Shown one piece after another: positions 1,946 to 51,148 of a stretch of DNA of 64,000 bases. The notes beneath the pieces were generated by a model. That model saw only the letters and a list, made by a program, of their open reading frames with translations. It searched no databases and was not told where the DNA came from. The translations under genes and the position numbers were made by a program. Every line of letters starts with the position of its first letter. Position 1 is the first letter of the stretch. Source of the DNA: Octopus vulgaris (Eukaryota); contig OX597827.1 in the NCBI GenBank assembly GCA_951406725.2, positions 23,932,001 through 23,996,000 of the forward strand, written 5' to 3'.

Positions 1946-3643
1946 TAAACCCAGCATTAATATGGTATTGACATAGCGGCAAATACAATGAATGTAACAA
2001 ATGCAGAATGAATTCGCTTTTAATACTCACTATGTCCTCTCCTTACCAAACACCCCACCACTACACACTCTACCAGACATCGCTGTACAATACTACAGTT
2101 AAGGCACCACCACACAGCACCATGTGAGGGTGCAAGGGGGAAGTATAAGAAGCTTTTATCCAATGACAATGATGATGATGAATACTGCAGGGGGGGGGTG
2201 AGGAGGTGGGCGTAATAAAAAATGATAATTTCTGAGCTATAACCACAATAACCAAGGTCCACAAATGATGTGGAGGAAGGATTGTGACAACAGCATCAAC
2301 AGCCCCCAATAAGATATTTTATTCTAAAGTCAGCACCCCCCTGCACCCCTCGCCCACCCCACCCCGGCAGAATTCAAACTCACAATGTAACAGGGATGTG
2401 ATAAAATACACCAAGACAACACAGGTCACCTGATGAAAGTTCGTCTCTGCCTGCTCCTCTTCCTTGGTAGAAAGATTCATGTGCATAAGTGTATATACAT
2501 ATGTGTGTGTGTGTATGTATGTATGTGTGTGTGTGTATGTGTATATATATATATATATATACATACATACACAGTCACACACACATAGATACATGTGTAT
2601 GTGCATATATATACATATATGAGTGAGTGTGTTGTTTATGTATGAATGTATAAAGAGGAAATGGTCAACCAACTACAGTTGTATAAAATACAAATTCCAA
2701 TATTGCTAATGGTGATGCCAACGTTATTTTTATGTCGGACTATAGCTTTTTTCAAGTAGTTGTTTTGTACCAGTATATACCTGGTACTTATTTCATCCAC
2801 CTTGAATTGAATTCAGGATATGAAAGGCTGTAACTAAATCCGGAAAGCTATTTAGTCTGGTGCTCCACCATAAGTGCCAACACTCCATTGTTTCCACTGT
2901 AAGACAAGCATAACAGCCACCAGATCATCAGTGTCACAATTCTGCCACTACTCACCCATTACTGCCATTTCTTCCACCATAACATAGGTGGTCACAAAAT
3001 TGGTGGGGCAGGGAAATAGTCAAATTACTCCCATCCCCAGAATATGACGTGCTTTCTTTATCGACCGATCCCACGGACGGAAAGATGAAAGGCAAAGTCG
3101 CCCTCAGTACGATTTACACTTTAAATGTAAAAGAATGCTATTAAATAATTCTCTATTCCCAAATCACTAAATTCTTCAGCATTAACCAACAATCCTCCAC
3201 ACAGGGTGCAATGCTAAACCAATTCTTTGTCATTATTGAATAATTTTTCATTTCTGCCAACCACCATCGTTTTAATAATAATAAAAATGATAATAATGGT
3301 TCCAAATTTTGGCCCAAAGCCAGCAAGTTCGGTGGTAGGGGTTAAATTGATTACATCAACCCCTGTGGTCAACTGGTACTTGTTTTATCAACTCTGGAAA
3401 GATGAAAGGCAAAGTTGACCTCGGCGGATTTTTGAACTCAAAATGTAAAGACGGACGAAATGCCGCTAAGCATTTTTTGCCCAGCATGCGCACAATCCTG
3501 CCAGCTCGCTACCTTAAAACGACAACAACAACAACAACAACAATGATGATAATAATAGTGATAATAATAGTAATCAGAAGCTTCCAGAAAGTGAAATGTA
3601 AAGAAACACCAAGACTTAAACTAGTCTTCAATTTCCATCTTAC

Positions 3644-4398
3644 CGTTTCCTCTCATTCATTTTCTTCACATTTCAGTGGACACCAGAGAGAGAAAGAAAA
3701 AAAAAAGGAAGAAGGAAATAACAAAAAAGCAAAAAAAAAAAACAACAAAAATGCACAGGAAATATCACCCTCCTTCTGCCCCCCCACCCTCCACCACCAT
3801 CGTCATCCTTCTCTCATCTTCATACCCCCCTACTGCTGCTGCTGGTGTAACACTGTTCTTTTTCTGTTTGTTTGGTTTAATGTTTATTTTTCTTTTCTTT
3901 TTTTTCTGCCTTTTTTCTTCACAAATTATTTTTTTTAAAAGAAAAATGTTTTTTTTAATTGTTGTTGTATTTTTTGCAATATTTTATATATTTTTTTTAC
4001 ATATCAAACAATTATTATTATTATTATTATTATCATCACTCATCATCGTCAAGTGTGGTGAATTTTATGTTTTTTTTACGTCTTGTGGTTTTTTTTTACA
4101 TTGAATTTTTGTTGCAAATTTTCTTTTTTTTTCTTTATATCACTATTTACAAATTTGTTGAATTTATTATTATTATAATTATTATTAGTATTAATTATTA
4201 ATTATTATCATTATTAATATTGCATACACACACCCAAACACTCAACTACACATACACATGCATACATGCTTACACACACATGTGTGTAGACGTGCACGTG
4301 TAAGTGTGCGTGCATGTGTGTGTATGAGTCTGCCTATGTGTGTAAGTCTGTACATGTGGGTGCATGTGTGTGGGTGTATATATGTACACTAAGCGTTG
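3644..4398 (-). other. Probable 3' UTR of the attractin-like gene (lower bound uncertain)
   Basis: Low-complexity, A-rich (on minus) sequence directly after the stop codon; AATAAA on the minus strand at about 4163-4168 and 3883-3888. Confidence 0.45.
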
Positions 4399-8939: not shown

Positions 8940-9950
8940 CACAAGGCAGGTTAATATAGGAGAACATCATGTAGCAGATATACAGGAAGTTAGTAATAAG
9001 TGCTGGTGCTTCATTTGGCAGGCTACAGGAGAGGCTGAGGAAAAATAAGCATGTTTCTATATGGGACAAATGTAAGGTATACCAGGCTATAGTGCTTCCT
9101 TCCATCCCTGCCGTATGGAGCTGAAAGCTGGACAGTCTATAAAGCTCAAGTAGACAAGTTACATGTGTGTATGATGGGACAGCTATGATGAATTATGAAT
9201 GTATAACACACTGACAGGATCAGGAATCAAGAGATCCGATAGTGTGTTGGTCTCCTCTTCAATCACCTCTGTCTACGCCACATCCTTCGTGTCCGATGGT
9301 ATCACTTTGCCTCCAACAATTCGGTGCGACACCGGTACAGAATCACCTCCCTCCGACAAGTCATCCCAATGAGACGCCTGCGTTGGCTGGGTCATTCCCT
9401 CCGTCGTCAACCAGGAGAATTCATCTACAAAGCAATTGCCCCAGCTCCCCTTCAGGGTTGGCGAAAGCAATATGGTGGACAACGAAAAACCTGGCTGATG
9501 ACGGTCAAGGCTGATCTGGAACCCAACCTAGGCCCCCATATCTACGGCATTCACCACTGGAATAAGGAGTGGTTGGAGATCATGCGGTCGTTAGCCTCAA
9601 ATTGCCAGGTCTGGTCGGCATTTGTGAGAGATGCAGCATTGAGGATGAATGAAGTCAACTCAACCCACCCCGGGTGAATGCTGTCTCAAGTCAAGTGTTG
9701 GTCTCTGCTTTCTATGATGGAAATCTTCATTGATAGAAATTTACACAGGATGGACAACAGCAGACTCTGCAGACAACTGCTTTACTCCCAATAACGCAAA
9801 ATGAAAGAGAAACCATGGAAGACCTGGACGGAGATTCAAGGAAACTGCAAAAAGGAAGATGAAGTGGAAAGGAATTGATAGTAATAAACAGAAACAAAAG
9901 TAAAAACTGACCAGTGTGGAAAAAGCTTCTCAAGTCATGCCTAAGTCATG
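8940..9950 (+). mobile_element. Older decayed RTE-clade LINE 3' fragment, interrupted by the younger RTE
   Basis: Degenerate RT C-terminal motifs before the insertion (YQAIVLPS, PYGAESWTVYK, DRIRNQEI) and after it (HRMDNSRLCRQLLYSQ, RNHGRPGRRFKET), with stops and frameshifts. Confidence 0.8.
9255..9694 (+). mobile_element. 5'-truncated RTE-clade LINE, relatively young, with an 11-bp TSD
   Basis: Open frame 9255-9677 LFNHLCLRHILRVRW...RRLRWLGHSLRR...GGQRKTW...STHPG-stop; short CAAGT-type tail; flanked by GTGTTGGTCTC at 9244-9254 and 9695-9705. Confidence 0.9.
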
Positions 9951-13875: not shown

Positions 13876-15549
13876 CACACACACACACACACATATGTAT
13901 ATACACACACATATATATATGCATGTGTATACACATATATATACATATGCATGTGTATACACATATATATACATATGCATGTGTATATGCATGTCTATAC
14001 ATACAGTATATATATATATATATAATGTATGTATATAGAATACATCCAGATGTCTATGTATATGTAGAGATGTGTTGCAGTGTGTGTGTGTGTGTGTTGG
14101 CCAACAGCCAATCCATTGTAAGTCAATTACCACAATAAAACGGCATTAGAACATTGATTATAATCATGTGGGGTTGGGGTGAGGTGGAGGTGCATGTGAG
14201 GGGGGTGAAAATGGCGGCAACAGAGACAGTATCTGGGACTGATGTCTGTGTGTGTATAGATAAGAGTGGTGTGTATGTGTGTATATATCATCATCATTAT
14301 CATTTAGCATCCATCTTCCATGCTGGCATGGGTTGGACAGTTCGACTGGAATTGAGAACCTGGAGAGCTGCACAAGGTTCCGGTCTGATTTGGCAGGGTT
14401 TTTTATGGCCAGATGCCCTTCTTAACACCAACCATTCCAAGAGTGTAATGGGTGTTCTTAATGTGCCACTGGCATGGGTGCTTTTACATTCCACCAGCAA
14501 GGGTTCTGTGCCTAGAGAAATATATATTGCAAGGATCTTTATATTCGTGTGTGTGGGTGTGTATGTCTGATCCTCCTCCTCATCATCATCATCTAACATA
14601 CATTTTCCATGCTGGTATGTGTTGGACAGTTGAACAAAATCCAAAAAGTCACAGGGCCATATTGAGCTCCAGGGTCAGCTTTAGGCATGTGTGTGCTTTT
14701 GTGGTATTCATTTGAGAAAATATGTCTGTAGACTGGTCCACAGGTGAGGCATTTAAAAGTTATGGTGATGAGATCAAATCCTTGCTTTGCACAATGTGTT
14801 CCTATCACTACAATATTACATTGAAAGTGGTTACTACTACTACTACTACAGCCCCCATTACATAGGACTGACTATCACCTCAACTTCTACAATTACTACC
14901 ACCAGCACATGGAGGTGACCACTGGTCCCCTATAAATAACATCAACACCCTTAAAAATACCACTACCCCCACCACTACTACTACTACAACTAATACTACT
15001 GCTTCTACTACCATCACCACTACTACTACTACTACTACTAGATTATGGTGACCATCACAACTGGAAGATAAATAAAATCAACAAAAATGTAATCCAAGTT
15101 GAAAATCCTTTATCTAAAACTCCAAAATCTTTTTGAATGCTGATTTGACACCACAAACGGAGAATTCCACACAAAGTCCTGGCAAGGTTTCCCATGAACA
15201 GCCGTTGTATGCCATTATGACATGTGTCCTTACCTGCTTCGATAGGGGCTTCTCCTCCACCCTACCCCAGCTCAGGTGAGCTGACTGCTTGGCAGCTATC
15301 ACAATAAAACCTTTGCTCTCTTCGTTACTCATTGTGATTCCTGCCCATTTTGTGCTTGGTGGTGTGAAGATGTTGGAAATGTTGAAAGGGCTTGGAGATA
15401 ACCCCACAGGTAACACTGGTTGTTTGTGGGGTTTTCTTTTGGTTTTGGGGGTTTTTTCCTTCCTTCTAATTTTTGTACAGTAAAGCACAAAACATTATTT
15501 TTATGTGAAATCTGAATATCAGTGTAACGTGATTTGCTATCTTTTATCT

Positions 15550-15949
15550 CAACATTTTGGCTGATATACCTTCCAGCCTTCATCAGGTATCTTGGGGAAA
15601 TTTTGAACCTGGGTTCTCATTCCTAAAGTATTTTTTGATGTTATTATTATTAAGGTCACTGCCTGGAATCAAATTTGGAACCTTGGGGTTAGTAGCCTGC
15701 GCTCTTAACCACTACACCACAGGCATATGGCGTGGTGGGTAAGAGCGCAGACTATGAACCCCAAGATTCCAAGTTTGATTCCAGGCAGTGACCTGAATAA
15801 TAATAACATCAAAAAATACTTTAGGAATGAGAACCCAGGTTCGAAATTTCCCCAAGACACCTGATGAAGGCTGGAGGGTTTATCAGCCGAAATGTTGTGT
15901 TAACAATAAACAAGATGAGGACAAATATCCAGCAAGTGTAAATAATGTA
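15550..15949. mobile_element. Head-to-head palindromic tRNA-SINE / Penelope-tail element, copy A
   Basis: Arms of about 170 bp are reverse complements around 15719-15728. Each arm has an A-box-like GGCGTRGTGGTTAAGAGCG, a B-box-like GTTYGATTCC, a (TAA)n spacer and a CTGATGA...GAAA tail. Confidence 0.85.
15856..15901 (+). ncRNA. Minimal type I hammerhead ribozyme motif (Penelope-type), slightly decayed
   Basis: GACAC-CTGATGA-A-GGCTG(gagggtttat)CAGCC-GAAA-TGTT-GTGTT: core boxes, stem II GGCTG/CAGCC, stem I GACAC/GTGTT; stem III consensus across arms is the palindrome AACGTT. Confidence 0.7.
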
Positions 15950-16171
15950 TAAAAAATACTCCAAAATAATAAAAAAAAACCCATCAAATATCTGCATTGC
16001 ATCAGTCCCAGGAATTTCAAATAAAGCATTCCCAACCTGTGGTTTTGCAAATTGCTACTGAGAATTTGTTGATATGAAAGGAATTCATTCCCTTTGACCC
16101 ATCCCCTAAATCCTGAGTCAATGGTCAAAGGTCAGTAGTGAGGATGAGAAAGAAAAAAAAAACAAACTTAC

Positions 16172-16300
16172 CTTTTTCTTCTTTCGATAATCCTGTTTTT
16201 CCTTTTTCTCGGCAATACAGCCATCCACTCGTCTTTCAATATCAATGGAGACCACAGCAAATGGGCGACTGGCCATCTGCTCCAGCTCAGCAAACATACG
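16172..16300 (-). CDS. ATRN: Attractin-like protein, cytoplasmic exon with MASRPF motif
   Basis: Acceptor gtttccttttcccag, donor aag|gtaagt; 129 nt, phase 0 to 0; RMFAELEQMASRPFAVVSIDIERRVDGCIAEKKEKQDYRKKKK; QMASRPF is the attractin/MEGF8 signature. Confidence 0.95.
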
Positions 16301-16723
16301 CTGGGAAAAGGAAACACAGCGATTAGGGCAACTGGAAAAGGTTCCGTTTGTGACAGCTGGTGGGGTGTGGCAGATGATGGGGTGGAGGAGCTGTTACAAG
16401 TGCAGGACAGTGGTGGTGAGGAAGGAGGTAGTTGAAATGTGTAGGAGAGCTGGTAGTGTAGGGCATGTTGTGGAGTGGGGGAGCATTATTACATTGTATG
16501 TGACAGCCAGTAGAATGGGGGCAGATGGTGGTGGTGGAAGGGCTGTCACAGGTGGTGGTGATCTGACATGACATTGTTGAGTTACACTGTGTGGGACAAG
16601 TGGTGGAGGGCAGAGAGTGAAATGTGTGTGTGTGTGTGTGTGAGACTGCTGGTTCAGACGAGGGTGTCACGAGTGTGACAGTTGATAGAGTGAAGTAGAG
16701 CTGTTACATGTGGGAAAGCTGAT

Positions 16724-23023: not shown

Positions 23024-23536
23024 TATTTATGTAATAGCATTATATGGAAAACTCAGCAATCTACAGCTGTTACCATTGCACAGAAACAATTGTTGTGATT
23101 TGTGATTAAAGCCTGTTCATTCCATCTCCTTGTCTTAAATATATTTATCTTTTTTTTTTTTGTGAGTAACACCCAAGCATTTCAAATTGTGGAAGTTGTT
23201 CCCCTTTAGATTATTTATTTTCTAAATTATTCAATGCAGTCTCTAATTATTGCCTGGAATAACTTTTTTTTTCAAAAGTTCATTTTCCTATCTCATACAG
23301 CTCAACTAATGTTTTTATGTTCATAAAGTCTCATGACCAAATTAATTCTCTCCTTTTTCTCATTAGTAAATCTAATCAATTTATAACACACCATGTGATG
23401 TCACATTACGTATTTCTATATACATTATCCCACTGTTAATCATTCTATTTCCTATATTCCACTTTAGAGAGCTTATTTACTTATTACACTGTGCTCATAT
23501 GCAACACACTATGTATCTGTATAGCATCTTTCTTAT

Positions 23537-24045
23537 CATTATTTACATTTGATGGATATTTGTCCTCATCTTGTTTGTTGTTAACACGTTTCAGCTGATA
23601 AACCCTCTAGCCTTCATCTGGTGTCTTGGGGAAATTTCGAACCTGGATTCTCAATCCTAGGGTATTTTTCGATGTTATTATTATTCTTATTATTACTCAG
23701 GTCACTGCCTGGAATCAAACTCAGAATCTTGGGGTTAGTAGCCTGCACTCTTAACCACTCTTAACCACTATGCCATATGCCCGTGGCGTAGTGGTTAAGA
23801 GCACAAGCTAATAACCCCAAGATTCAGAGTTCGATTCCAGGCAGTGACCTGAATATTAATAATAATAATAATATTGGATAATACCTTAGGAATGAGAACC
23901 CAGGTTTGAAATTTCCCCAAGACACCTGATGAAGGCTGGAGGGTATATCAGCTGAAACATTGCGTTAACAACAAACAAGGTGAGGACAAATATTCATCAA
24001 ATGTAAATAATGTACATAATTCCTCATCTCTTAAATATAGAACTG
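23537..24045. mobile_element. Head-to-head palindromic tRNA-SINE / Penelope-tail element, copy B (opposite orientation)
   Basis: Arms of about 235 bp around 23775-23784; same sequence family and same central junction as copy A. Confidence 0.85.
23921..23966 (+). ncRNA. Minimal type I hammerhead ribozyme motif, decayed copy
   Basis: GACAC-CTGATGA-A-GGCTG(gagggtatat)CAGCT-GAAA-CATT-GCGTT. Confidence 0.6.
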
Positions 24046-24439
24046 TATCTTTCTTTTCATCATCATTGTTCAATGTCTGTTTTCCATGCTGGCATGGGTT
24101 GGACGGCTTGACTGAGGTCTGGAAAGTCAAGAGGCTGCCCCACACTCCAATCTATTTGGCAAAGTATCTACAGCTGGATGCCCTTCCTAACACCAACCAC
24201 TCTTTGCCACAGCATCCATAAAACTTGTTATAATGCTCCAAAACAACTTATTTTTCATTTTTTGCTGTGCATCACAACAATTTACAAGAGATTTCTTCTT
24301 CATCATTGTAGCCTAATCAATTCTTTTGAGGTAAGTTCCTACCTTCTTACAGACTGATAAGGCTTAAGTTTGACTTGATTCTTCTCACTAAGGTCACTAA
24401 AAACCTTACTTCTTAACATCTTTTTTCTGTCTCCCCAGC

Positions 24440-26213: not shown

Positions 26214-29080
26214 CTAACAGAGATACCTGGCGTTGCCCAGGTACATTCAGGTGGTGCTATTAAGTTAGACATGGCCTGGGCCAATAATGGCCGAAACCTA
26301 TCAAAGTATATATATGGATACACACACACATGTGTATATTAATATAAATACATGACATTTGTTAAAGAAAAGGGGATCATGTATATACCTCCTGGCTGTT
26401 GAGATTATAACACCTCGTTGTAAACAATGTTCCTTGTTTTTCCTTGTGGAGCATATACAAAAAGGTTTCTTTTGGTTCCTACTCTTGAGCAGCCAACATA
26501 CAGTTGCCCATGCGAGAAGCAGGGCTCTTCCAAGAGAAGACCAGCTACAGAGAGGGTTTGACCCTGAGATTTGTTAATGGACATGGCAAAGCTGACACGA
26601 AGGGGGAATTGCAGTCTTCTGAATGTAAATGGAATTTCTGCTCCTGATGGAGTAAGAGGAAATCTTGAAATAAAGACGTCATCACCTTTTCCACATCTAG
26701 AAAGAATGATCGCCTCGATAACGTGTGACATCATTTTCTTTATCACCAGTCGTGTTCAACTGCAAAGTCTTGGTGGTTCCAGATTGCGGAGTAGCATTAC
26801 AGGAGTTCCAACTTTAAGTGCTAATATGTGTGGAGGTAGTCCAGGAGGCTCCAGTGAATTGAGAAATTCAGGAGGATAGTTCACAACTTCATTTATATCT
26901 GGAATTGTATCAACAGACTTGTAAGTGTGTATAGTGCCAGGAAGAGAATGCATTAGCTGTTGATTAATTTTGTTAACAGCGACGTTTTTTGGAGCTAATA
27001 TTGCTCTTTCACACAACCAATTGTGATTTTGGTAGTTTTGTGTGAAGTTGGGAAAGACTTTGTTTTTGAGGTCATCTACAGAATTAACAACAGAGGAAAA
27101 TGACCACACTTCCATTTGTCCTGCAGCATCGAGGCATCTTGCCTTCACCAAGTGTCAAAATGTCCTGTGCAAACTTTGCGGACATTTTGTCGCCGTGTAG
27201 CTGAGCTCTCATGTTAGTGGTGAGACTGAGGATTGTAACATGATGCCACAGGGTAGAGGACTTCATCTGCTCTAGTGCCTCTCGGAATGACAGAAAGAGT
27301 TTGCCTGAAATCACCTGACAACAGAAGCGTTACACCTCCCATTGGAGTCTGACAGTCTCGGATGTCTTTCAGGGCTCTATCTAATACTTCCAAAGCTCCC
27401 TTGTGAGCCATAGTGCACTCATCCCAGACAATTAGATGACACATTTTAAGTATTTGTCCCTGATCTGAGCTTTTGTTGATGTTGCATGAAGGCATTTCGG
27501 ATGCTGCTAAATTGAGAGGGAGTTTAAAAGTTGAGTGTGCTGTCCTGCCACCAGGTAACAAAGTAGCTGCAATGCCAGAGGAGGCTACAGCTACTGCAAT
27601 GTCCTGATGCTGCCTAACTTCTGCAAAGAGAAGCTTTGTAATAAATGTTTTTCCTGTCCCTCCGGGAGCATCGAGGAAGAAGATTCGTCCCTCGCGTTGG
27701 CGTACACTGTTAAGAATAGTTCTGTAGTAAATATCTGTTACCGTCATCCATTGTACCGTAGTGAGAAGTAAGTTTTATTTCCCTGTGTTGGGAATGAAAT
27801 GAGAATGAGATGTAAGGGGACAATGTTTTTGAGATTCCGGTTCGAATGTAAGGCAGATTTGAAAGTGTTCTCAACAGTTATTAGTTGTAGTGGTAGAGTG
27901 TTTATGCAGAATATGTACGTATGCATGTATATATATGTATGTATGCCTGTATATGTACAAAATCCACTGAGAAGGCTTTTGTTGGTCTGAGGCTACAGCA
28001 GAAGACACATGCTAAGTCACCACACAGTGGGACTGAATCCAGGACCATGTGTTTGGAACGTAGTTTGTTACCACACAGCCACATCTGCCCCTATGTATGT
28101 GTCTGTGTGTGTGTATGGGTAGATATATTATGCATGTATATATATGTATATATATATGTGTACATATTACATGTACATCTATATATATACATCTACACAT
28201 AAAATACAAAGTTATATCTTGATATATAGTGATAACAATACTCAAAATATATAACAGACTGGAATTGTAGGCCCTTCTCTTGCAATTTGGATCAATTGGA
28301 TCTTGTCCTCCCTCTTGTATAGAAGTGTACGGCTGCAGCGAAATTCACTTTTGGACTTTCTTCTATCGAAGGCATTTTAACAAAAATGCTTCCGTAAAGA
28401 CAGTGAAAATATTGTCAATTTTCCCAAACAGGGACACAATTCAATTTTTAAACAATAACCAAAGCCCGAAAGGGGGAGGGTTACGGTTTACAATTATTTA
28501 ACAAATGCAACACAACAACGTTTCCCTGACGAGGAACCAACAAACGTGATTACAATAGTCAAACAGTAATAATAATAACAACAAACCTTTTTAATTTATC
28601 CCCATTTATGTGAAACCACTTATTCAAGTTCAAGTCATTGATGCAATTTTATACGAATTGCTAATACACACACACACACATAATAAGGGTGAAAAATTGA
28701 ATATTAATTTGATTAATATGAATTGAAAACCAGTGGTGTAGCATATAAGACCATAGCGGGTCTTCTTCTAGCAAAATGGATGACCACTTGTTAATGGTTC
28801 ATCCCTGTTATATAATACTTTCACTTTAATAGTTTCAGTATTAAAATGAAACTGTCTGCATTACAATAAAGAGATGTTTTTGTTTCACTTTTAACACGTA
28901 ATACTGAAATAGTGGAGAAGATATGATATTGCTGTGGGGTCGCCCTAGGCAAAAGAACTCCCTGGACCTTAAGTAAGGCATGTGTAAAATTTGAATGAAA
29001 TTGGTTGTGTAGTTCTCAAGTTTTAGGGAAACACACAGATAGACAGACAGACAGACATTCTCAGTTTTATATATATATAA
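26214..29080 (-). mobile_element. Decayed, internally deleted Helitron with nested SINE and microsatellites
   Basis: 3' end on minus: hairpin TACCTGGGCAACGCCAGGTA (26224-26243) then TTAG (decayed CTAG) followed by T. 5' end near 29080: T(T)TATATATATATAAAACTGAGAATG(TCTG)n, the usual Helitron 5' style. PIF1 helicase remnants lie inside. Confidence 0.82.
26405..27747 (-). pseudogene. Helitron PIF1-family helicase, frameshifted
   Basis: Overlapping frames carry FLDAPGGTGKT (Walker A), GGRTAHSTFKLP, IVWDEC (Walker B), GDFRQTL, RAILAPKN, PVMLLRNL, QFPLRVSFAMSINKSQGQTL and FSHGQLYVGCSRV; several frameshifts. Confidence 0.93.
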
Positions 29081-36327: not shown

Positions 36328-37930
36328 ATCCACAAACACTCAGCTGTAACCCACATCCCAAGGATGACTTGGTACTAGCATGTACCATGCTTTCCTTAAT
36401 TGTTTTAGGTACCTGAATAGTTGCAGCAAACTTAAAATCTTCCCTACTTTCTGCTCCATAACCCAGCAGAGCAGTCAGGAAGGAGGTTATAGTGGAGAAA
36501 GAGGAGGGTTGCACTGGCCCCGAGCCAATACTTAAATTAATGAACCCTGAATGGAAGAAAAGTAACAACAGGAACTGAGGTCAGGTTGCAGAGAACCAGA
36601 ACAAATATTGTTACAGTCGGTTGCTTTGGCATTGAGGCATGTGTGTGTCTTCATAAATACATACAGGTATCATCATTTAACGTCCGTTTTCCGTGCTGGC
36701 ATGGGTTGGACGGTTCGACCAGGGTCTGGGAAGCCAGGAAGCTGCACCAGGCTCCAGTCTGATCTGGCAGTATTTCTACAGCTGGATGCCCTTCCTAACG
36801 CCAACCACTCCATGAGTGTAGTGGGTGCTTTTTACGTGCCACCGGCACAGGTGCCAAGGAAGGCTGGCAGCGGCCACGATCGGTTGGTGCTTTTTACATG
36901 CCACTGGCACAGAAGCCAGTCAAGGTGGCGCTGGCATCGGCCACGTTCAGATGGTGCTTTTTATGTGCCACCAGCACAGGTATCACAACTACAATTTCCA
37001 TTTGATATTTATTTTGATGTTGATGTACTTGACTCAATAGGTCTCTGCACACACCTACACATAATACCTTTGGCAATATGCTGTGCTTGAATAGACGACC
37101 CATCAAGCCAAGTGAAATCATAGTCATGGCAGCTACTGGTGTCACGCAACTGGCACCTGTGCCGGTGGCACTTAAAAGCACCCATTATACTCTTGGAGTG
37201 GCCGGCTTTAGGAAGGGCATCCAACCATAGAAGCCATGCCAAATCAGACTGCAGTCTGGTGCAATCCCTCAGTTTACTAGCTCTTGTCAAATTATCCAAC
37301 CCATACCAGCATGGACATTACATGATGATGATGTTATATATATACATATACACAGGCATGACAGTATGGTAAGAATTTTGCTTCCCAACAACATGGTTCA
37401 AGGTTCAGTCCCACTTTGTAGTACTATGGGAAAGTGTCTTCTATAGCATGAGGCCAATCAAAGCCTTGTGAGTGGATTTTGTAGACTGAGACTAAAAGAA
37501 GCCTGTCCCCTTCTACACTGCTTGCCAACTGCTGTTGGTTTGTTTACATCTCTATAACTTAGCAGTTCAGCAAAAGAACCAACAGAGTAAGAACCAGGCT
37601 TTAAAAAAAAAGTCCGGGGGGGGGGCATTCATTTAACTAAAAATTCTTCAAGGTGGTGCCCCAGCATGGCCACAAACTAATGACTGAAACAAAAAAAAGA
37701 AAAATACAGACACACGATAACACTGATTAGTGAGAATGAGTGCTCAACACTGCATTTGGTGGATAAACAAGGCTACCAATAGTTTCTTATCCAAAGTGGA
37801 GGAGATATTGAAGCATTTTTTAAATGGAGCACTTGAAAATTGTGTATGTTCATTCCACATGAAACCATTGGTAGCATTGCTAATCCACAAATAAAGTACA
37901 TATCATCATCATCATATATATATATATATA

Positions 37931-38315
37931 TAGTAGAACCTTGCAGTATGAGTGCCCCATTGTACAAGTAATTTGCTATACGAGCTGAGATTCATGTGAA
38001 TTTTTGTCTTGAAGTACGAGCAGAAATCCAGAGTACGAGCACACAAATCATCCCATCTTTAAGGTAATTCAGTTAATAAAACCCGTTGACATATTTCTTT
38101 TGCATTCTCTTTTTTATAATTGCCATTTTACTTGTAACTACACCTTTCCTGTTTTAAAAACCATGAAAAATTATTTTTGATTGGTTTTTGGGGGCTGGAA
38201 CGGATTAATTATATTTTAGTTAATTTCAATGGGAAAAACTGATTTGTAAAACAAGTGAATAAGAAGACGAGCTCGGTCATGGAACGAATTAAACTTGTAC
38301 TATGAGGTATCACTC
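37931..38315. mobile_element. Tigger-like remnant (copy at about 45780-46163; similar element at about 56040-56348)
   Basis: Decayed ends AGTAGAACCTTGCAGTA / TACTATGAGGTATCACT and an internal GGAACGAATTAAACTTGTA motif typical of this group. Confidence 0.5.
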
Positions 38316-38670
38316 TGTGTGTGTGTGTATAAATATATATACATACACATACATATACATACAAATATGTCCTTTATGGCCATGCTCTCACTCTCTCTCT
38401 CTCTCTCTCTCTTTTCCCAGCTGAAAGGTCTCTGTTTTGCAGGTGCTGGAGCTGTGTAAAAGACACTTGTGCTGGTACCACATTTTATGCACTCATGCCA
38501 GTGCTGCAGAGATGCATCCAGCACACTAAGTAAAGTGGTTGGCATTAGGAAGGGCGTCCAGCCATAAAGGACAATTGGAACCTGGACAGCTCCTGTCAAA
38601 CCATCCAACCCATGCCAGCATTGAAAACAAACGGTGAATGATGATAACAATGATCCCACACACACACATC

Positions 38671-38725
<55 letters not shown>

Positions 38726-41700
38726 GAGAGAGAGATACACACATATCTCTCTACCCTGCTGTCCATCAATACATTTGCCAGTTTACAAAAATCTAAAAAT
38801 AAAATATAAAACAACAACAAACAAGAAAAACAAGAGAAATCTCAACAGATCTGTGGAAATGTCAGAAGCAAAGTATTAATGAGAATTATAAGAACGGACA
38901 ACAACAACAACAGGTTCTACAGTCAAAACTGTGTCCCTCTTCCCCTCCGCTTCCACCACCTGATCAGATTGAAGACAACAACACAGAAATATGGAAATGT
39001 TAGCCTCATATAGAATATGGCAGCGGCGGGGGTGGGGAGCATTTGTGTGTGTGTGGGTGTGTGTTGGTTGTGCGTGCTGGTGTGTGTGTGAGTGTGTGTG
39101 TTGGTATAGTGTATGTATTGTGTGATTGTGTGGTGTCATTGTGTGTGTGTGGTTGTGTGTGTGCATGTTTGTTTTATGTGTGGTGTGTGTGTGTTGGTAT
39201 GGTGTGTGTGTAGTATGTGTGTGTGTGTGTGTTTCTGAGTTGGCTTACTATGTGTGAAAGAAACAAACACTTCAACAAAGCAATGATGCTGCTGCTGCTG
39301 ATGAGGATGACAAAACTGGTTATAACGATAGTTATGATGATGGAGACAAGGATTACTACTATGGTCTTATAATGATGGTGGTGGAGAGGTGGTTGGTGGT
39401 GGTGACGAGGTTGACTATAGTGAGGATGACATTGTTGGGTGCATTTAGCACTAATGACTTAATTAGCTTTATAGTATTGCTGTTGATAATGTTGTAGTGG
39501 ACATGGTAGGGTGGGTGACTGAATGGAGGTGGGGGAGGCCTGCCAAGGCAAAATACAGAGTTGCCATGGTAACCAGTTGTTGTAAAGGTGGGAAGATTGA
39601 CAATATGAAACTTCAAATAACAACTTATGTACACACACACACACACACACACATGGACTCAGTAATTATTTGGGAGCAGAGAGGAAACCTTTCAATCTTC
39701 ACTTGTCCCCAGGTTCTATCCTTTCATAATCCCCTTCCACAGTCTCACAAAGATGATCCAAAAGCCCCCATCACACTTTCTGTCTCCACCAAATGCCTAC
39801 CTGCTGGCTACAAATGCAAAAGGTTTTGCTCCTTGAAGAACTTTAGTTGAACGAATTGGCCCCAGTACTTATATTTTTTGTGCCTGGCACTTATTCTATC
39901 AGTCACTATTGCCAAACTGCTAGGTTACAGGGATATAAACAAACCTATACCAGTTGTCAAGCAGTGGCTGAGACAAACACATATAAACACACAACAGGCT
40001 TCTTTCAGTTTTCCTCTACCAAATCTGTTGGTCAACCTGAAGCTTTTGTTGGAGGCCTGGCTGTGTGGTAAAAACCCTGATACACACACACCATACACAC
40101 ACACACACTATAAGTGCAAGTGTGGCTGTATGGTATGAAGTTTGCTTCCCAACCACATGGTTCCAGGTTCAGTCGTACTATGCTGTACCTTGGGCAAGTA
40201 TCTTCTACTATAGACTTGAGCCGATTAAAGCCATGTGAGTGGATTTGGTAGATGGAAACTGAAAGAAGCCTGTCATCATCATCATTTAATGTCCATACCA
40301 TTTTTATGAGCATGTACATATATATATATGTGTGTGTGTGTGTATATATATATATTAACAGGATGAATACTGATGGCCCATTCCCATCAAAACTTCCATC
40401 AAATGCAACCATAACCAAGACTCAACTGGTTGTGTGGAACAGAAAATGAAAACCAAGTATAAAAGTCAGCATCCTAACAGATGTGAAAAGTTCTCTATTC
40501 TGATTACAAATTCTCGTTTATACCAATAATTGTCGATGCACTTAGGCTGTCTTAGTAAATCCATTATTAACCACAATTTTGAAAAGCTAGGATTTTCAGC
40601 TAAAGCTAACAAACACTTCACAAACATAATCCATAAACAGAACAGAAAATAAGAGATGCAAGACTTTTCTAGAGTTCAGCATGGAAACTTATTGTTTTTC
40701 GTTACCCAAATTCAACAATGGGGCTTTGTTTCACTGAGAAGAGAGACTGGCTCCTTCTACATTGAAAAAATTGAAATAATTAAACAAGAACACACACACG
40801 CTGATTAATTTTAGCTGCCAGATCATCCCGAACATTGCAAACCTACAAGGAATTCATATTATATCATATCATCCAGTGTATCATCATCATCGTTTAACGT
40901 CCGTTTTCCATGCTAGCATGGGTTGGATGGTTCGACTGGGGTCTGGGAAGCCAGGAGGCTGCACCAGGCTCCAGTCTGATCTGACAGTGTTTCTACAGAT
41001 GGATGCCCTTCCTAACGCCATCCACAACCTGAGTGTAGTGGGTGCTTTTTACGTGCCACCGGCTGGGAGACCAGAGGAGGCTGACAAACGGCCACATTCG
41101 GACGGTGCTTTTTACGTGTCACCAGCAAGGGTGCCCCTTCCATGCATGTGTATACTACAAATATGTGTGTGTGTGTGTGTGTGTGGTGCAAGCTTGGTCG
41201 TGTGATAGACGTTTGCTTTCAAACCAAATTCCGGGTTTGGTCTCACTGTGTGGTACCTTGTATCTTCTACCATGTCTTCTTGTGAGTGGAGTTGGTAGAC
41301 GGAAACAGAAAGAAGCACAGCATGTGTGTGTGTCTTTGAGTCCATGTTTGCCCACCACCACCACCACTTGCCAACAGGTGCTGGTGCATTTACATCTCTG
41401 TGACTTAGTAGCTCAGCAAAAGAGACTGATAGAATGAATACCAGGCTTAAGAAAAGTCCTGGGATTGATTCATTCAACTAAAAAATTCTTTGAAGCAGTG
41501 CTCCAGCATGGCTGCAGTTTAATGACTGAAACAATTAAAAGATGGAAGCTACATGTACACACACACGGTTGTAGGCAATTCCTCAGAATAGAAAATAACT
41601 CCAGGGACCCACATGTAATTATGTAGGTCAATGTAGGGTCCACAAGTTCAATTCTAAGCTGAGCACTTCTCATCTCAAACAATAAGAAACATTTGTGTTG

Positions 41701-42009
41701 GTTGCTTTGTACTGCTTTCTCTATTCCCATTTATCATTGAGATGTTTGGTTCATGCAGTGTGTGTGTGTGCACATATACTTTGGAAACAATGAGGTCCAA
41801 CACAAGACATTATTTCATCTGAAGACACTTATCTGTACATGAATATATATATATATATAAATATTATATACACATGTATATATGCATTATATGCACACAC
41901 AAACACATATATATACACACACACACATATATATATATGATGGAACATAAAGTCTTGAGATATGGTACAACTAAATATTCGCAGGAAGCAGCAATGACTA
42001 ACAGATAGA

Positions 42010-42076
<67 letters not shown>

Positions 42077-42770
42077 AGGCATGAAAGGAGTGGAGCGGAT
42101 AAGCAATTAAGGAAATGTCCAAACCCAAGCGCTTCCTCAGATCTGCAAAAAGGAGAGGACAACGTGATTATTTTCGATACCTTGCATGATACCTTCTTTT
42201 CTCTATAGATGCATATAACACATACACACACACACACACAGAAATACACAACACACATACATACATGGTCAGTATATAAACACATACACTACATGTAAAC
42301 ATAAGCAAGAAGGATGTACACCCCATATTATATGCAAAAATAGACATATGTCACACAACACAGGTAAACAGAGTAGTGACCAAAAAAGAAAAAAAAAATA
42401 CAGGCAAAACATGCTTGATACATTTTGGTCAAGTATGCAGACCACTACATCACATGCTGATGCTAACATACCAGGCTTCCTTTTGTCTAAGTACTTCATG
42501 GCTGTTAGTGTCACAAAAAGAAATCAGGGAGCAAGGAAAGGAAACATTCCTATTCTCGTCCTCACCCCCACCCACCCATGACATTTTGTGAAGGTGGGCA
42601 GAACTTTTGTATGTATTATGTTGTGTTATTATGCAGAGGAGGAACCAAACTCAAGTGCCACCTCGGGTGATACATCTCATGCCTAAATTATAGTGTTGAT
42701 GAATTTTGGATAACTCTCGACTTTATTACTAAAAAATATATAATTATCAAAAAAAAAAAAAAAGGGAAAT

Positions 42771-42841
42771 TAAATTGGCTGGGAATTGAACCCAGTGCAA
42801 CTTCATAGTAGGCAAGCATTCTACCACTAAAACTAATACTT
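42771..42841 (-). pseudogene. tRNA-Gly-like pseudogene (copy at about 50635-50705)
   Basis: Minus strand reads TAGTGGTAGAATGCTTGCCTACTATGAAGTTGCACTGGGTTCAATTCCCAGCCAAT, resembling eukaryotic tRNA-Gly D and T arms; anticodon arm broken; followed by a T-run. Confidence 0.55.
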
Positions 42842-42905
42842 TCTATAGAAAATTATTATTTTTAAATCTCACAACTTGAGATATTCAGCAACAGCACTTT
42901 GGAGA

Positions 42906-43158
42906 AAAGATTGTTAGCCAACATAACATGGCAGTCCTGGTTTAGGACGAATGTTGCTGTAATTTGGCCCCAGGAGACATCGTCTCCAGCTGGCTATACA
43001 ACATGATCTGTCTCCTCATATTTTCGAACAAGGAAGTGGGGATGCTAGATTCCCTTGTTCGAAAATATAAGGACACAGATCGTGTCGTATAGCCAGCTGG
43101 ATTACAGCAACATTAGTCCTAAACCAGAACTGCCATGTTATGTTGGCAAACAATCTTT
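42906..43158. mobile_element. Palindromic MITE (second copy at 50770-51022 within the duplication)
   Basis: AAAGATTGTTAGCCAACATAACATGGCAG...CTGCCATGTTATGTTGGCAAACAATCTTT; folds over nearly its whole length. Confidence 0.8.
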
Positions 43159-43176
43159 ACTAATATTTTCTTGCCT

Positions 43177-43210
<34 letters not shown>

Positions 43211-43215
43211 GTATG

Positions 43216-43266
<51 letters not shown>

Positions 43267-45330
43267 CATAAGCACGCAAACCAGAATGGGCTAAAATTGT
43301 GTTCACACTACTAAATAATGATTTTTATAAATAAAATATGAGGCAACATTTTTGTCTTTGCTCTAAAATAATTTCCTGTTAATGGCATAATTTGCCAAAA
43401 CTATCACATCGTTTTTAGAATGTATATTTTCAATATTTATATCAATATTATGTTCCTGATAGGTGCCTTAGCCTTGGATATATGCATCATTAAGGTAAGT
43501 ATTTACAATATCTGCAGCTACACTATGTTCTAATTAGTCTTATTACTGGATATATATATACATCATTAGCATAATCTATAGAATGGTGTGTTCCAATTAG
43601 TGCCTTATTACTGGAAGTGCACAATGAACATGCATGCAGTACAGAGGTGTTCAACAGCAAGGACTTTACAACCCATAGTTCTGAGACATAACTAGCCTAG
43701 TCTCAGACTATGTGTATATATACACACACACATATATGTGTATGTATGAATATATATATATATATGTGTATATAAATATATATGTATATATATATATATA
43801 TTCATACATACACAAATACATACATATATATATTTATATATATATATATATTTATATACATTTATATTTATTTATATATATATATATATTTATATACATT
43901 TATATTTATTTATATATATATATATTTATATACATTTATATTTATTTATATATATATATTATTATATATATATAAAGAGAGAGAGAGAGAGAGAGAAGGA
44001 GGGATGAAGACAGATAATGATTATTGAACCAATTACCAGTGTTGTTGTTGTTTAGCCACAGGTCAGTCCTCATCGAGTAGCTCTCTACCCTCAGTGACAT
44101 TCTGGTCACAATCTATCCAGTCTTTCTTTTTCAAGCATAATATACCCAGGGGTTACACTAACCAACATGGTCTTTTTCTTTTTAGAACATAAGTTGTAAT
44201 TTCAGGGTAACTTGTCTGCTATTTCTAGCATAGCTTGACTAAGATGCAATATGTAAATATACAGGTAAGATGAGTAATGTGCCAAATTCTCATATTTGTA
44301 CAAATAATTTCAAATTTTGGTACAAGGCAAGTAATTCTGGAGGAGGGGCGTAAATGAATTACATCGACTCCAGTGTACAACTGGTACTCGTTTTATCGAC
44401 CCCGAAAGGAAGAAAGGCAAAGCTGACCTTGGTAGAATTTGAGCTCAGAACGTGAAGATGGACAAAATGCCGTGAAGCATTTTGCCAACTCGTTACCTTT
44501 GTCATGTTTATAATAATAACGGTTGGTCAAGGTCTTTGAATTACAGATGGAATCCAGCTTTTATTATAATGTCACAGGTTGAGTGTTCCGGGGATACTTT
44601 GGGGTAGCATATCAGGGAATAATAGCTTCAAAAAATCATTTGATAAATATAGACAAGGGGAAAATGATGAAACAGCCATCATCTTTCCACTCTGGCCAGT
44701 TTAAACGCTAAATGGTCAAACTGATGTTTGAAACATAAGAAAAAAAAATTTTTTAATTTATGTCCCAAACTTAACGAAACTTACAATATTTTGTTGTTCT
44801 TTTTAGATGTTAACTAAAGCAAAATTCTTTTAAAACATGGCTAGAAATACTCTCTTCTATACAAATAAGCCATTCTTATAAGATTGAATGTGTTAAGTAA
44901 TTTAATAAAGTATTTATAGCTAATTTATCAGCAGATTTAAATAGTCAAAAATAGCAGATACATAGAAGTGGAGCAAACGGTTACCTTGTCATTGTACCAA
45001 TATCGTCTCCCAGTATCCACATCAAGTGGAAGGACTAAACAATAACCAGGATGTGGTGAGTGACAAGGCCCAGTGAGCAAGTTAACCGTTTTTTGTTACC
45101 TTATTTCTATCAACATGTTCTGCCTGTGTTTTAATTAATTTTGTAAGTAATGAAGAATTTAGTGAAATAACTTGTTATAGTTAAACTGTGTTTAAAACAG
45201 TCAAGGGCAATCAGCTGTCTGCAGGACGTTCTGTAAAGCATGCCTAACTAAAAACTATTTTTTAATTATTTTAGTAGAGCGGCCTGCCTACTAATGAGAG
45301 CCATGTCTCATGCGACCCACTTCTAGTAAG

Positions 45331-45430: not shown

Positions 45431-46238
45431 AGAGTAAGAACCAGGCTTTAAAAAAAAAAGTCCGGGGGGGGGGGCATTCATTTAACTAAAAATTCTTCAA
45501 GGTGGTGCCCCAGCATGGCCACAAACTAATGACTGAAACAAAAAAAAGAAAAATACAGACACACGATAACACTGATTAGTGAGAATGAGTGCTCAACACT
45601 GCATTTGGTGGATAAACAAGGCTACCAATAGTTTCTTATCCAAAGTGGAGGAGATATTGAAGCATTTTTTAAATGGAGCACTTGAAAATTGTGTATGTTC
45701 ATTCCACATGAAACCATTGGTAGCATTGCTAATCCACAAATAAAGTACATATCATCATCATCATATATATATATATATATAGTAGAACCTTGCAGTATGA
45801 GTGCCCCATTGTACAAGTAATTTGCTATACGAGCTGAGATTCATGTGAATTTTTGTCTTGAAGTACGAGCAGAAATCCAGAGTACGAGCACACAAATCAT
45901 CCCATCTTTAAGGTAATTCAGTTAATAAAACCCGTTGACATATTTCTTTTGCATTCTCTTTTTTATAATTGCCATTTTACTTGTAACTACACCTTTCCTG
46001 TTTTAAAAACCATGAAAAATTATTTTTGATTGGTTTTGGGGGCTGGAACGGATTAATTATATTTTAGTTAATTTCAATGGGAAAAACTGATTTGTAAAAC
46101 AAGTGAATAAGAAGACGAGCTCGGTCATGGAACGAATTAAACTTGTACTATGAGGTATCACTCTGTGTGTGTGTGTATAAATATATATACATACACATAC
46201 ATATACATACAAATATGTCCTTTATGGCCATGCTCTCA

Positions 46239-46269
<31 letters not shown>

Positions 46270-46519
46270 CTGAAAGGTCTCTGTTTTGCAGGTGCTGGAG
46301 CTGTGTAAAAGACACTTGTGCTGGTACCACATTTTATGCACTCATGCCAGTGCTGCAGAGATGCATCCAGCACACTAAGTAAAGTGGTTGGCATTAGGAA
46401 GGGCGTCCAGCCATAAAGGACAATTGGAACCTGGACAGCTCCTGTCAAACCATCCAACCCATGCCAGCATTGAAAACAAACGGTGAATGATGATAACAAT
46501 GATCCCACACACACACATC

Positions 46520-46574
<55 letters not shown>

Positions 46575-49500
46575 GAGAGAGAGATACACACATATCTCTC
46601 TACCCTGCTGTCCATCAATACATTTGCCAGTTTACAAAAATCTAAAAATAAAATATAAAACAACAACAAACAAGAAAAACAAGAGAAATCTCAACAGATC
46701 TGTGGAAATGTCAGAAGCAAAGTATTAATGAGAATTATAAGAACGGACAACAACAACAACAACAGGTTCTACAGTCAAAACTGTGTCCCTCTTCCCCTCC
46801 GCTTCCACCACCTGATCAGATTGAAGACAACAACACAGAAATATGGAAATGTTAGCCTCATATAGAATATGGCAGCGGCGGGGGTGGGGAGCATTTGTGT
46901 GTGTGTGGGTGTGTGTGTGTGTGTTGGTTGTGCGTGCTGGTGTGTGTGTGAGTGTGTGTGTTGGTATAGTGTATGTATTGTGTGATTGTGTGGTGTCATT
47001 GTGTGTGTGTGGTTGTGTGTGTGCATGTTTGTTTTATGTGTGGTGTGTGTGTGTTGGTATGGTGTGTGTGTAGTATGTGTGTGTGTGTGTGTTTCTGAGT
47101 TGGCTTACTATGTGTGAAAGAAACAAACACTTCAACAAAGCAATGATGCTGCTGCTGCTGATGAGGATGACAAAACTGGTTATAACAATAGTTATGATGA
47201 TGGAGACAAGGATTACTACTATGGTCTTATAATGATGGTGGTGGAGAGGTGGTTGGTGGTGGTGACGAGGTTGACTATAGTGAGGATGACATTGTTGGGT
47301 GCATTTAGCACTAATGACTTAATTAGCTTTATAGTATTGCTGTTGATAATGTTGTAGTGGACATGGTAGGGTGGGTGACTGAATGGAGGTGGGGGAGGCC
47401 TGCCAAGGCAAAATACAGAGTTGCCATGGTAACCAGTTGTTGTAAAGGTGGGAAGATTGACAATATGAAACTTCAAATAACAACTTATGTACACACACAC
47501 ACACACACACACATGGACTCAGTAATTATTTGGGAGCAGAGAGGAAACCTTTCAATCTTCACTTGTCCCCAGGTTCTATCCTTTCATAATCCCCTTCCAC
47601 AGTCTCACAAAGATGATCCAAAAGCCCCCATCACACTTTCTGTCTCCACCAAATGCCTACCTGCTGGCTACAAATGCAAAAGGTTTTGCTCCTTGAAGAA
47701 CTTTAGTTGAACGAATTGGCCCCAGTACTTATATTTTTTGTGCCTGGCACTTATTCTATCAGTCACTATTGCCAAACTGCTAGGTTACAGGGATATAAAC
47801 AAACCTATACCAGTTGTCAAGCAGTGGCTGAGACAAACACATATAAACACACAACAGGCTTCTTTCAGTTTTCCTCTACCAAATCTGTTGGTCAACCTGA
47901 AGCTTTTGTTGGAGGCCTGGCTGTGTGGTAAAAACCCTGATACACACACACCATACACACACACACACTATAAGTGCAAGTGTGGCTGTATGGTATGAAG
48001 TTTGCTTCCCAACCACATGGTTCCAGGTTCAGTCGTACTATGCTGTACCTTGGGCAAGTATCTTCTACTATAGACTTGAGCCGATTAAAGCCATGTGAGT
48101 GGATTTGGTAGATGGAAACTGAAAGAAGCCTGTCATCATCATCATTTAATGTCCATACCATTTTTATGAGCATGTACATATATATATATATGTGTGTGTG
48201 TGTGTATATATATATATTAACAGGATGAATACTGATGGCCCATTCCCATCAAAACTTCCATCAAATGCAACCATAACCAAGACTCAACTGGTTGTGTGGA
48301 ACAGAAAATGAAAACCAAGGTATAAAAGTCAGCATCCTAACAGATGTGAAAAGTTCTCTATTCTGATTACAAATTCTCGTTTATACCAATAATTGTCGAT
48401 GCACTTAGGCTGTCTTAGTAAATCCATTATTAACCACAATTTTGAAAAGCTAGGATTTTCAGCTAAAGCTAACAAACACTTCACAAACATAATCCATAAA
48501 CAGAACAGAAAATAAGAGATGCAAGACTTTTCTAGAGTTCAGCATGGAAACTTATTGTTTTTCGTTACCCAAATTCAACAATGGGGCTTTGTTTCACTGA
48601 GAAGAGAGACTGGCTCCTTCTACATTGAAAAAATTGAAATAATTAAACAAGAACACACACACGCTGATTAATTTTAGCTGCCAGATCATCCCGAACATTG
48701 CAAACCTACAAGGAATTCATATTATATCATATCATCCAGTGTATCATCATCATCGTTTAACGTCCGTTTTCCATGCTAGCATGGGTTGGATGGTTCGACT
48801 GGGGTCTGGGAAGCCAGGAGGCTGCACCAGGCTCCAGTCTGATCTGACAGTGTTTCTACAGATGGATGCCCTTCCTAACGCCATCCACAACCTGAGTGTA
48901 GTGGGTGCTTTTTACGTGCCACCGGCACAGGGGCCAGAGGAGGCTGACAAACGGCCACATTCGGACGGTGCTTTTTACGTGTCACCAGCAAGGGTGCCCC
49001 TTCCATGCATGTGTATACTACAAATATGTGTGTGTGTGTGTGTGTGTGTGGTGCAAGCTTGGTCGTGTGATAGACGTTTGCTTTCAAACCAAATTCCGGG
49101 TTTGGTCTCACTGTGTGGTACCTTGTATCTTCTACCATGTCTTCTTGTGAGTGGAGTTGGTAGACGGAAACAGAAAGAAGCACAGCATGTGTGTGTGTCT
49201 TTGAGTCCATGTTTGCCCACCACCACCACCACTTGCCAACAGGTGCTGGTGCATTTACATCTCTGTGACTTAGTAGCTCAGCAAAAGAGACTGATAGAAT
49301 GAATACCAGGCTTAAGAAAAGTCCTGGGATTGATTCATTCAACTAAAAAATTCTTTGAAGCAGTGCTCCAGCATGGCTGCAGTTTAATGACTGAAACAAT
49401 TAAAAGATGGAAGCTACATGTACACACACACGGTTGTAGGCAATTCCTCAGAATAGAAAATAACTCCAGGGACCCACATGTAATTATGTAGGTCAATGTA

Positions 49501-49874
49501 GGGTCCACAAGTTCAATTCTAAGCTGAGCACTTCTCATCTCAAACAATAAGAAACATTTGTGTTGGTTGCTTTGTACTGCTTTCTCTATTCCCATTTATC
49601 ATTGAGATGTTTGGTTCATGCAGTGTGTGTGTGTGCACATATACTTTGGAAACAATGAGGTCCAACACAAGACATTATTTCATCTGAAGACACTTATCTG
49701 TACATGAATATATATATATATATAAATATTATATACACATGTATATATGCATTATATGCACACACAAACACATATATATACACACACACACATATATATA
49801 TATGATGGAACATAAAGTCTTGAGATATGGTACAACTAAATATTCGCAGGAAGCAGCAATGACTAACAGATAGA

Positions 49875-49938
<64 letters not shown>

Positions 49939-51042: not shown

Positions 51043-51074
<32 letters not shown>

Positions 51075-51099
51075 GTATGTATGTATGTATGTATGTATG

Positions 51100-51148
<49 letters not shown>

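Follow-up and report, generated by a model that had tools for sequence, protein, structure and literature searches.

Several described systems share features with the octopus element analysed here. Schistosoma carries SINE-like elements in which an apparent Pol III promoter is followed by a type I hammerhead (PMC6765202, in its available sections), so that the combination which an earlier note on this DNA did not recognise as a named class was already known. According to the accessible part of PMC4209133, S. mansoni also carries canonical hammerheads, and the Penelope-like elements (PLEs) possess a minimal hammerhead, with a consensus given in its Fig S3, that cleaves weakly and only as a dimer. 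PLE insertions, as described in a portion of PMC8557442, carry at their 5' end a further copy that is inverted and 5'-truncated, and show partial tandems and a 30–40 bp tail, often at one end; the tail on one side only, the tail-out inversions and the partial tandems are presented there as PLE-specific and absent from LINE insertion. In excerpts of PMC11167929, the PLE protein nicks and extends both strands, starting inside the RNA, and two internal start sites define the tail; hammerhead cleavage was dispensable and no reads ended at the cut. Animal non-LTR retrozymes are tandem and promoterless, and it has been proposed that they derive from PLEs and are mobilised by them (passages of PMC7761336 and bioRxiv 10.64898/2026.07.22.740005), and Chlamydomonas MRC1-type non-autonomous PLEs are non-coding and share the 3' end of autonomous PLEs (PMC8557442, same portion). 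For octopus, a genome size of 2.8 Gb and, in O. vulgaris, 6.83% Penelope-like DNA have been reported (PMC13282606, in its available text).

The octopus element resembles and differs from each of these systems. As in the Schistosoma elements, presumably those named Sm alpha, and Sj alpha, a Pol III-type promoter and a type I hammerhead occur together in a non-coding repeat. However, the Schistosoma elements, which were compared by description and from partial sources, form head-to-tail tandems whose cleaved unit loses the promoter, whereas the octopus copies are dispersed and keep it on the copied strand, their hammerhead is of the minimal PLE type, they have a PLE-type end and tail, and they are arranged in inverted pairs; no tandem layout with an upstream promoter serving the next unit was seen. 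With endonuclease-bearing PLE insertions the element shares the minimal hammerhead with its extra base, the inverted 5'-truncated partner, partial tandems, a one-end tail of 30–40 nt and ends inside the region of an ORF start, but it has no RT or GIY-YIG ORF, a tRNA-like head takes the place of the element body, and one centre recurs. Like non-LTR retrozymes it is non-coding, carries a type I hammerhead and is proposed to be PLE-derived; unlike these tandem, promoterless arrays, it occurs as dispersed inverted pairs with Pol III boxes, head-to-tail units being a minority. It also differs from the MRC1-type PLEs, for which the available text mentions no tRNA head and which belong to the Chlamys-type PLEs without a canonical hammerhead.

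The DNA analysed, referred to as the window, is a stretch of 64 kb from Octopus vulgaris. It contains two tail-out palindromes, copy 1 at 15550-15949 (defined by repeat and arm alignment) and copy 2 at 23537-24046 (about 23529-24014 without the tail), and no solo arm was found within it. The inverted arms of copy 1, 15544-15719 and 15728-15903, are 176 nt each, 91% complementary and spaced by 8 nt. The earlier note had read an outward-pointing palindrome of two ~170-bp arms, each with the order A box, B box, (TAA)n and hammerhead motif; the inverted layout was confirmed and the order was found in all four arms of the window, which align from head to hammerhead, but the length was not upheld, the arms being ~230 nt. 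In the right arm of copy 1 (c1R, plus strand), a tRNA-like head at 15721-15795, comprising a leader (15721-15727), an A box (15728-15738) and a B box (15773-15781) with one mismatch each, is followed by a (TAA)n linker at 15796-15808, whose limits come from arm alignment and loose ends at 15796 and 15806 and whose length differs between family copies. Within the body (15809-15855) lie an 11-mer common to a sister family (15824-15834) and, near 15838-15845, another motif resembling a B box; the minimal type I hammerhead occupies 15856-15901, and the 3' segment, 15902-15949, terminates at the main family end, 15949, as placed by contig depth and end tables. The left arm (c1L, 15550-15719, minus strand) begins with the A box, has no leader of its own and carries an altered hammerhead G12. 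Its family similarity ends one base beyond the predicted cut, and it is the only arm in the window that stops near this site (15550-15551); the 51–53 nt beyond the cut are present in the other three. The 60 nt beyond c1L showed a marginal resemblance to the optional tail (17–87 of 1000 shuffles), and no target-site duplication was found at the flanks of copy 1.

Copy 2 was delimited by arm alignment and by its duplication. Its leader-bearing left arm (c2L, 23537-23782, minus strand) has a 10-nt duplication in the A-box region, a damaged core and cut region and no tail, and its right arm (c2R, 23784-24014, plus strand) has perfect A and B boxes, a hammerhead core at 23926 and a broken stem III pair. 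The optional tail of 31–32 nt (24015-24046, plus strand) is present at the right end of this copy only and is common to other copies. Flanking the whole are target-site duplications at 23526-23536 and 24047-24057 (both plus strand; 10 of 11 positions identical, at most 14 nt with overlap); a duplication of 11–14 nt with one mismatch arose by chance in 6 of 2000 random trials, in which the search was narrower. Copy 2 is thus one insertion event, in which both arms are flanked by a single duplication. Another SINE-like family starts immediately after the right duplication, and other abundant SINE-like families have heads at 1932, 13525, 19899, 29819 and 54969.

The two copies share one asymmetric centre of 8 nt (15720-15727, identical to 23776-23783 in opposite orientation), at which one arm bears the 7-nt tRNA-like leader while its partner starts directly at the A box. 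In addition, the two arms of copy 1 have 5 of 11 minority letters in common, as compared with 2.1 expected (P 0.03), and equal linker lengths. The common letters fit a common template, but they fit conversion or a subfamily as well.

The hammerhead of c1R is formed by stem I (15856-60/15897-901), the core (15861-67), an extra A (15868), stem II (15869-74/15883-88) and GAAA (15889-92), with a predicted cut after 15896. The full minimal-hammerhead descriptor was matched by one of the four window arms (at 15861) and by none of 200 shuffles, and each of the three remaining arms has an altered core or stem III. The c1R motif fits the PLE minimal consensus, extra base included: CUGANGA followed by one base, G10.1-C11.1, GAAA-N-N-U-H, a short helix I and a loopless helix III are all present. 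A proposed check against Rfam did not bear the hammerhead out, since no match was obtained at E≤10 in window stretches; a whole-window run contained no hammerhead among the 150 of 292 matches listed, and five comparator hammerhead loci likewise gave no match at the gathering score. Pair 15.2-16.2 is C-G in c2L and in sister arms, while each arm of copy 1 has a U-G wobble there, as does 70–80% of DNA depth. GAAA is followed by T in the two copy 1 arms, and C accounts for only 20–30% of DNA depth, as counted from reads biased towards the reference, so that the previously given CGTT is not clearly the majority form. Folded locally, the motif pairs into stems I and II, the whole-arm fold gives stem I a probability of 0.01, and cofolding of two copies produced an alternative duplex and not stem III. 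Among the core variants listed, changes occur at the free position 7 (15865, 16–17% in three DNA runs) and at CpG sites. Stem II pair 4 is U-A in the octopus element and C-G in three of four sister arms, but the stem covariation that had been anticipated did not reach significance on small alignments (60 of 500 and 19 of 500 shuffles). The exact 24-nt motif was absent from the metagenome contigs searched.

With regard to the head, A and B boxes 45 nt apart were found with no mismatch in c2R and two in c1R, and c1L and c2L failed the scan at two mismatches. In 100 shuffled windows a pair without mismatch never occurred, and a pair with two mismatches occurred about once per window. Neither Rfam (no tRNA at E≤10 in window stretches) nor ARAGORN (no tRNA in the element) returned a match, and comparison of the head with phage records gave five matches, which is chance level. 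However, the octopus head is 75% identical over 49 nt to a stretch of contig L098, described below, that does match the Rfam tRNA model. As in tRNA-derived SINEs, the boxes lie at the 5' end at tRNA spacing and the element is short (~230 nt), non-coding, dispersed and multi-copy. The element is likely to be transcribed by Pol III as a monomer of ~230 nt. The earlier view of a non-autonomous retroelement in which a Pol III head of tRNA type is combined with a minimal hammerhead of Penelope type is supported. We consider it probable that the element is a tRNA-headed SINE mobilised by a PLE and that its palindrome arises at insertion.

The family was then followed in contigs from four sequencing runs of three organisms (4 of the 24 runs listed), placed on 15680-16040 at 80% likeness; this reference segment reached just 40 nt into the left arm, a limit that favours joints near 15719, and contig depth dips wherever the reference departs from the family sequence. 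The runs contributed 27,101, 26,091, 12,117 and 1,346 contigs. Peak depth relative to the single-copy flank was 1.4–1.6 x 10^5 in three DNA or unlabelled runs, a ratio that is not a copy number, and scaling of four arms per 64 kb to 2.8 Gb gave the same order, ~10^5 arms. Copies diverge by a few percent from the majority letters, as in a fairly young element. Summed depth fell from 687,349 to 632 just after 15949, which places the main end of the family 53 nt beyond the predicted cut. Among the 32 pieces listed, 13 had at least 20 letters past the outer end; nine of these stop at 15949-15950 and four at 15928-15930, a possible minor family end. The terminal 9-nt unit (15941-15949) is present in variable repeat number in other copies. 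Joints were also informative: 13 of the 15 listed (from 201) connect a head ending at 15710-15719 to points between 15772 and 15908, and the other two return from 15929 to 15856 or 15828 and represent partial tandems. The joints near 15719 could also stem from central deletions after insertion.

These data bear directly on the alternative that the dimer is the real unit, either transcribed outward with its ends processed by the hammerheads or copied as RNA of the whole palindrome. In the window both copies are complete dimers that share a centre, the loose-end consensus at 15719 follows this centre in three DNA runs (X1, X5 and X8), and c1L and one antisense arm of L098 (177) stop at the predicted cut, all of which this alternative would explain. 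On the other hand, none of the 13 informative pieces listed ends at 15896, the main end being 53 nt farther on, and no pile-up at the cut was seen among the pieces and loose ends listed, which speaks against the proposed hammerhead capping and end processing. The centres are variable, complete heads also joining partners that start at 15772-15908, and a full sister copy occurs solo, so that a dimer as the fixed unit is not supported. Moreover, RNA of the whole element folds into a single hairpin (-284 kcal/mol), and a transcript through the palindrome would have only one sense hammerhead, buried in this hairpin. We therefore regard this alternative as improbable. The hammerhead is probably an inherited part of the PLE module that is dispensable for setting the ends; it would cut only upon pairing of two RNAs, and the two arms ending at the predicted cut hint at occasional cleavage.

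Translated pieces of the element also occur in database proteins. A profile-free search with the translated tail returned 24 proteins, and database proteins with element pieces were labelled Octopus sinensis and O. bimaculoides. The tail of copy 2 is common to P0003, P0004, P0007, P0016, P0021 and P0024, and the element thus has ends at 53 and ~85 nt past the predicted cut. In P0004, an antisense arm precedes a sense arm, neither with a head. The Octopus gene models P0001 and P0002 open with the sense strand of the element (15827-15949) and exit near one point, a pattern that suggests a cryptic exon or an alternative start. Since protein searches select open frames, the open 41-codon frame across the module was not counted as evidence of coding.

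Numerous unnamed records whose module is akin to this one came up in the same searches and define a sister family 68–80% identical to the octopus module at the DNA level (L098). Among 119 sister proteins examined, antisense precedes sense in 15 and the reverse order occurs in none, and eight have tandem modules. In six, the frame continues beyond the end of the module into one ORF, and this end coincides in the octopus and sister families, inside a continuing ORF. The longest, P0148, has motifs that we recognised as presumably PLE N-terminal and aligns to the N-terminal part of the PLE protein P0154 (29% over 65 residues, BLASTP E 4e-4); hhalign gave a probability of 3.9% and an E of 0.011, and sister proteins had no match in Pfam, Atlas, PDB or phage records. 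The resemblance of the element 3' end to the PLE module is thus suggested by a sister-family comparison of weak statistics. At the DNA level, the sister family is carried by L098 (1-4419), an AT-rich, animal-like contig in a bacterial MAG record, which contains a cluster of tandem and inverted units; the antisense arm of this cluster (177) ends at the predicted cut. Stem II in L098 has one two-sided change, with overall covariation not significant. The contig also includes a solo full copy. Its leader is of the octopus type, its A and B boxes are spaced at 63 nt, and it has both the common 11-mer and a linker rich in AT. The sister head was matched by 11 of 141 proteins, as compared with 0–2 for three control stretches, and it had no match in Rfam. 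Since the solo sister copy has the leader type, boxes and module, the leader-bearing arm appears to be the monomer and the union of head and PLE module a conserved design. Elsewhere in L098 there is a 119-bp tandem array, and a tRNA-like stretch stands apart at 3622-3694.

Three published traits of PLE insertion were found here: an inverted 5'-truncated partner at the 5' end (contig joints, P0004 and the sister family), an optional one-end tail within 30–40 nt (31–32 nt, copy 2 right end only) and partial tandems (returns from 15929; 8 of 119 sister proteins). Since the inverted layout is itself a published trait of PLE insertion, the palindrome is largely a known PLE pattern. To place this geometry, DNA of other animals was scanned with the hammerhead pattern, which yielded 97 loci in which stem II matches by construction; 20 of them match the PLE protein P0029, and in seven that were translated, the end of a GIY-YIG ORF (supported by Pfam) lies upstream of the hammerhead on the same strand. 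PLE 3' ends with minimal hammerheads are present in the metagenome contigs L003, L012, L043, L068, L072, L076 and L092, and their optional extension is ~90 nt as compared with the usual 30–40 nt. In two large comparator families most copies end 50–61 nt past the cut and others at 136–150 nt, and antisense copies were upstream in 4 of 62 cases, as compared with 0 of 85 downstream. Outside the searched pattern the comparator loci neither resemble the octopus arm nor carry a tRNA head, and we read those linked to GIY-YIG as analogues, and not partners, with only the geometry in common. A search for an autonomous Penelope with the same 3' end, which the earlier note had called for, found none for Octopus by protein searches and recovered no full PLE ORF, and the link through the sister family is weak. 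Similarly, the 64-kb window contained no remnant of a PLE RT or GIY-YIG domain, viral contigs contained no PLE with the octopus module, and four short motifs of the element were absent from the supplement of PMC8557442.

An ordinary SINE mobilised by a LINE, in which a PLE end was captured once and the hammerhead is a passenger, has to be weighed against this reading. LINE-type tails often carry variable repeats, and the terminal 9-nt unit varies in repeat number. SINEs are normally LINE-dependent (PMC10886601, whose available part does not mention Penelope), and Octopus has active LINEs of the RTE and CR1 types (accessible text of PMC13282606). However, the tail confined to one side, the tail-out inversions and the partial tandems are features that the consulted portion of PMC8557442 describes as PLE-specific, and a module end that coincides in two families within a continuing ORF argues against it too; we hold this origin to be very unlikely. 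Least credible of all is a DNA foldback or MITE-like element having terminal inverted repeats with an old SINE and central deletions that gave variable junctions, which would suit the near-complete palindrome, the fixed centre and the 11-nt duplication of copy 2, but the termini are unequal (a tail on one end only in copy 2, differing ends in copy 1), head-to-tail tandems and a solo sister copy occur, and the listed core variants touch nothing but the free position and CpG sites.

For the favoured reading, a tRNA-headed SINE mobilised by a PLE, the following course may be envisaged. The ~230-nt RNA would offer its pLTR/ORF-start segment for recognition by the PLE protein, which would nick an AT-rich target and begin reverse transcription within the RNA, either at the main end or at that of the tail. 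Opposite to it, an inverted second copy would be added, which the shortness of the element would allow to be complete and which would otherwise be 5'-truncated. Against this reading stand the centre common to both copies, which chance joining would not give, the lack of a duplication at copy 1, the improbable stem I in the whole-arm fold and the absence of an Rfam tRNA match for the head. The centre may be regenerated if transcription at a palindromic locus began a few bases upstream of the leader and the RNA thus had a 5' hairpin, on which the cDNA end would fold back and copy itself to restore the 8 nt. We give this fold-back route slightly less than an even chance. Annealing of two complementary cDNA ends seems unlikely, and copying of a whole-dimer RNA a little more so; the RNAs of the two arms have six complementary 5' bases and could also anneal, as an alternative route to the centre.

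One run, X12, from another individual and only guessed to be RNA, showed elevated T-to-C changes at 15817 and 15847 (15–17% of depth, as compared with 0.1–0.4% in other runs) and an elevated G at 15880 (12% as compared with 1–3%), each over 27–47 contigs. Other raised changes in X12 reached 14–47% at three places, over 3–12 contigs. These changes fit, as a hint, A-to-I editing of both strands of a hairpin.

Other features of the window include two stretches (37584-45330 and 45431-53207) that form a 7.8-kb duplication, 99.3% identical, flanking a gap of 100 N, which is probably an assembly overlap, and broken PIF1 helicase pieces at 26405-27774 (minus strand), likely a Helitron remnant. An exon-like stretch of 42 codons with splice-like ends is located at 16173-16301 (minus strand), and copy 1 would sit in the following intron; we took it to resemble a C-terminal motif of attractin, a reading for which the searches run gave no support. 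The open frame at 9243-9677 (plus strand) looks to us like the C-terminal part of an RTE-type LINE and had no match in Pfam.

The octopus SINEs OK, OR1 and OR2, reportedly described by Ohshima and Okada in 1994, are said to have a tRNA-type head, a simple-repeat linker and a high copy number, and the present family may be identical with one of these or already entered in a current repeat library; a family this abundant is probably already in such libraries under some label. The literature searched, mostly non-subscription, contained no report of a dispersed tRNA SINE that combines a 3' end of PLE type with a recurrent inverted centre, and the available parts of two papers on octopus repeats (PMC13282606 and PMC8967140) do not describe the structure of the element. 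What is new here is the recurrent centre and the probable PLE partnership, the promoter-hammerhead combination and the inverted PLE layout being already known. As a whole, the proposal of an undescribed class of PLE-partnered SINEs with at least two families, in which the octopus palindrome is rebuilt by fold-back, amounts to ~10^5 arms and is a dsRNA source for A-to-I editing, is tentative.

If true, a tRNA-headed PLE passenger would fill a third slot beside the LINE-dependent SINEs and the recently described small-RNA-headed LTR passengers, and if the element is already catalogued, its PLE partnership may still be an unrecognised reclassification. A short, fairly young and abundant element offers thousands of complete insertions in which to test how the inverted and tailed ends of PLEs are formed, by one RNA that folds back or by two RNAs on a dimeric protein, and the same insertions could show whether the minimal hammerhead ever cuts in vivo. 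Exceptional RNA editing and dsRNA potential have been described in octopus (PMC5625713, in part), and each inverted pair would be a self-contained hairpin of 170–230 bp, relevant to the very high RNA editing of this animal.
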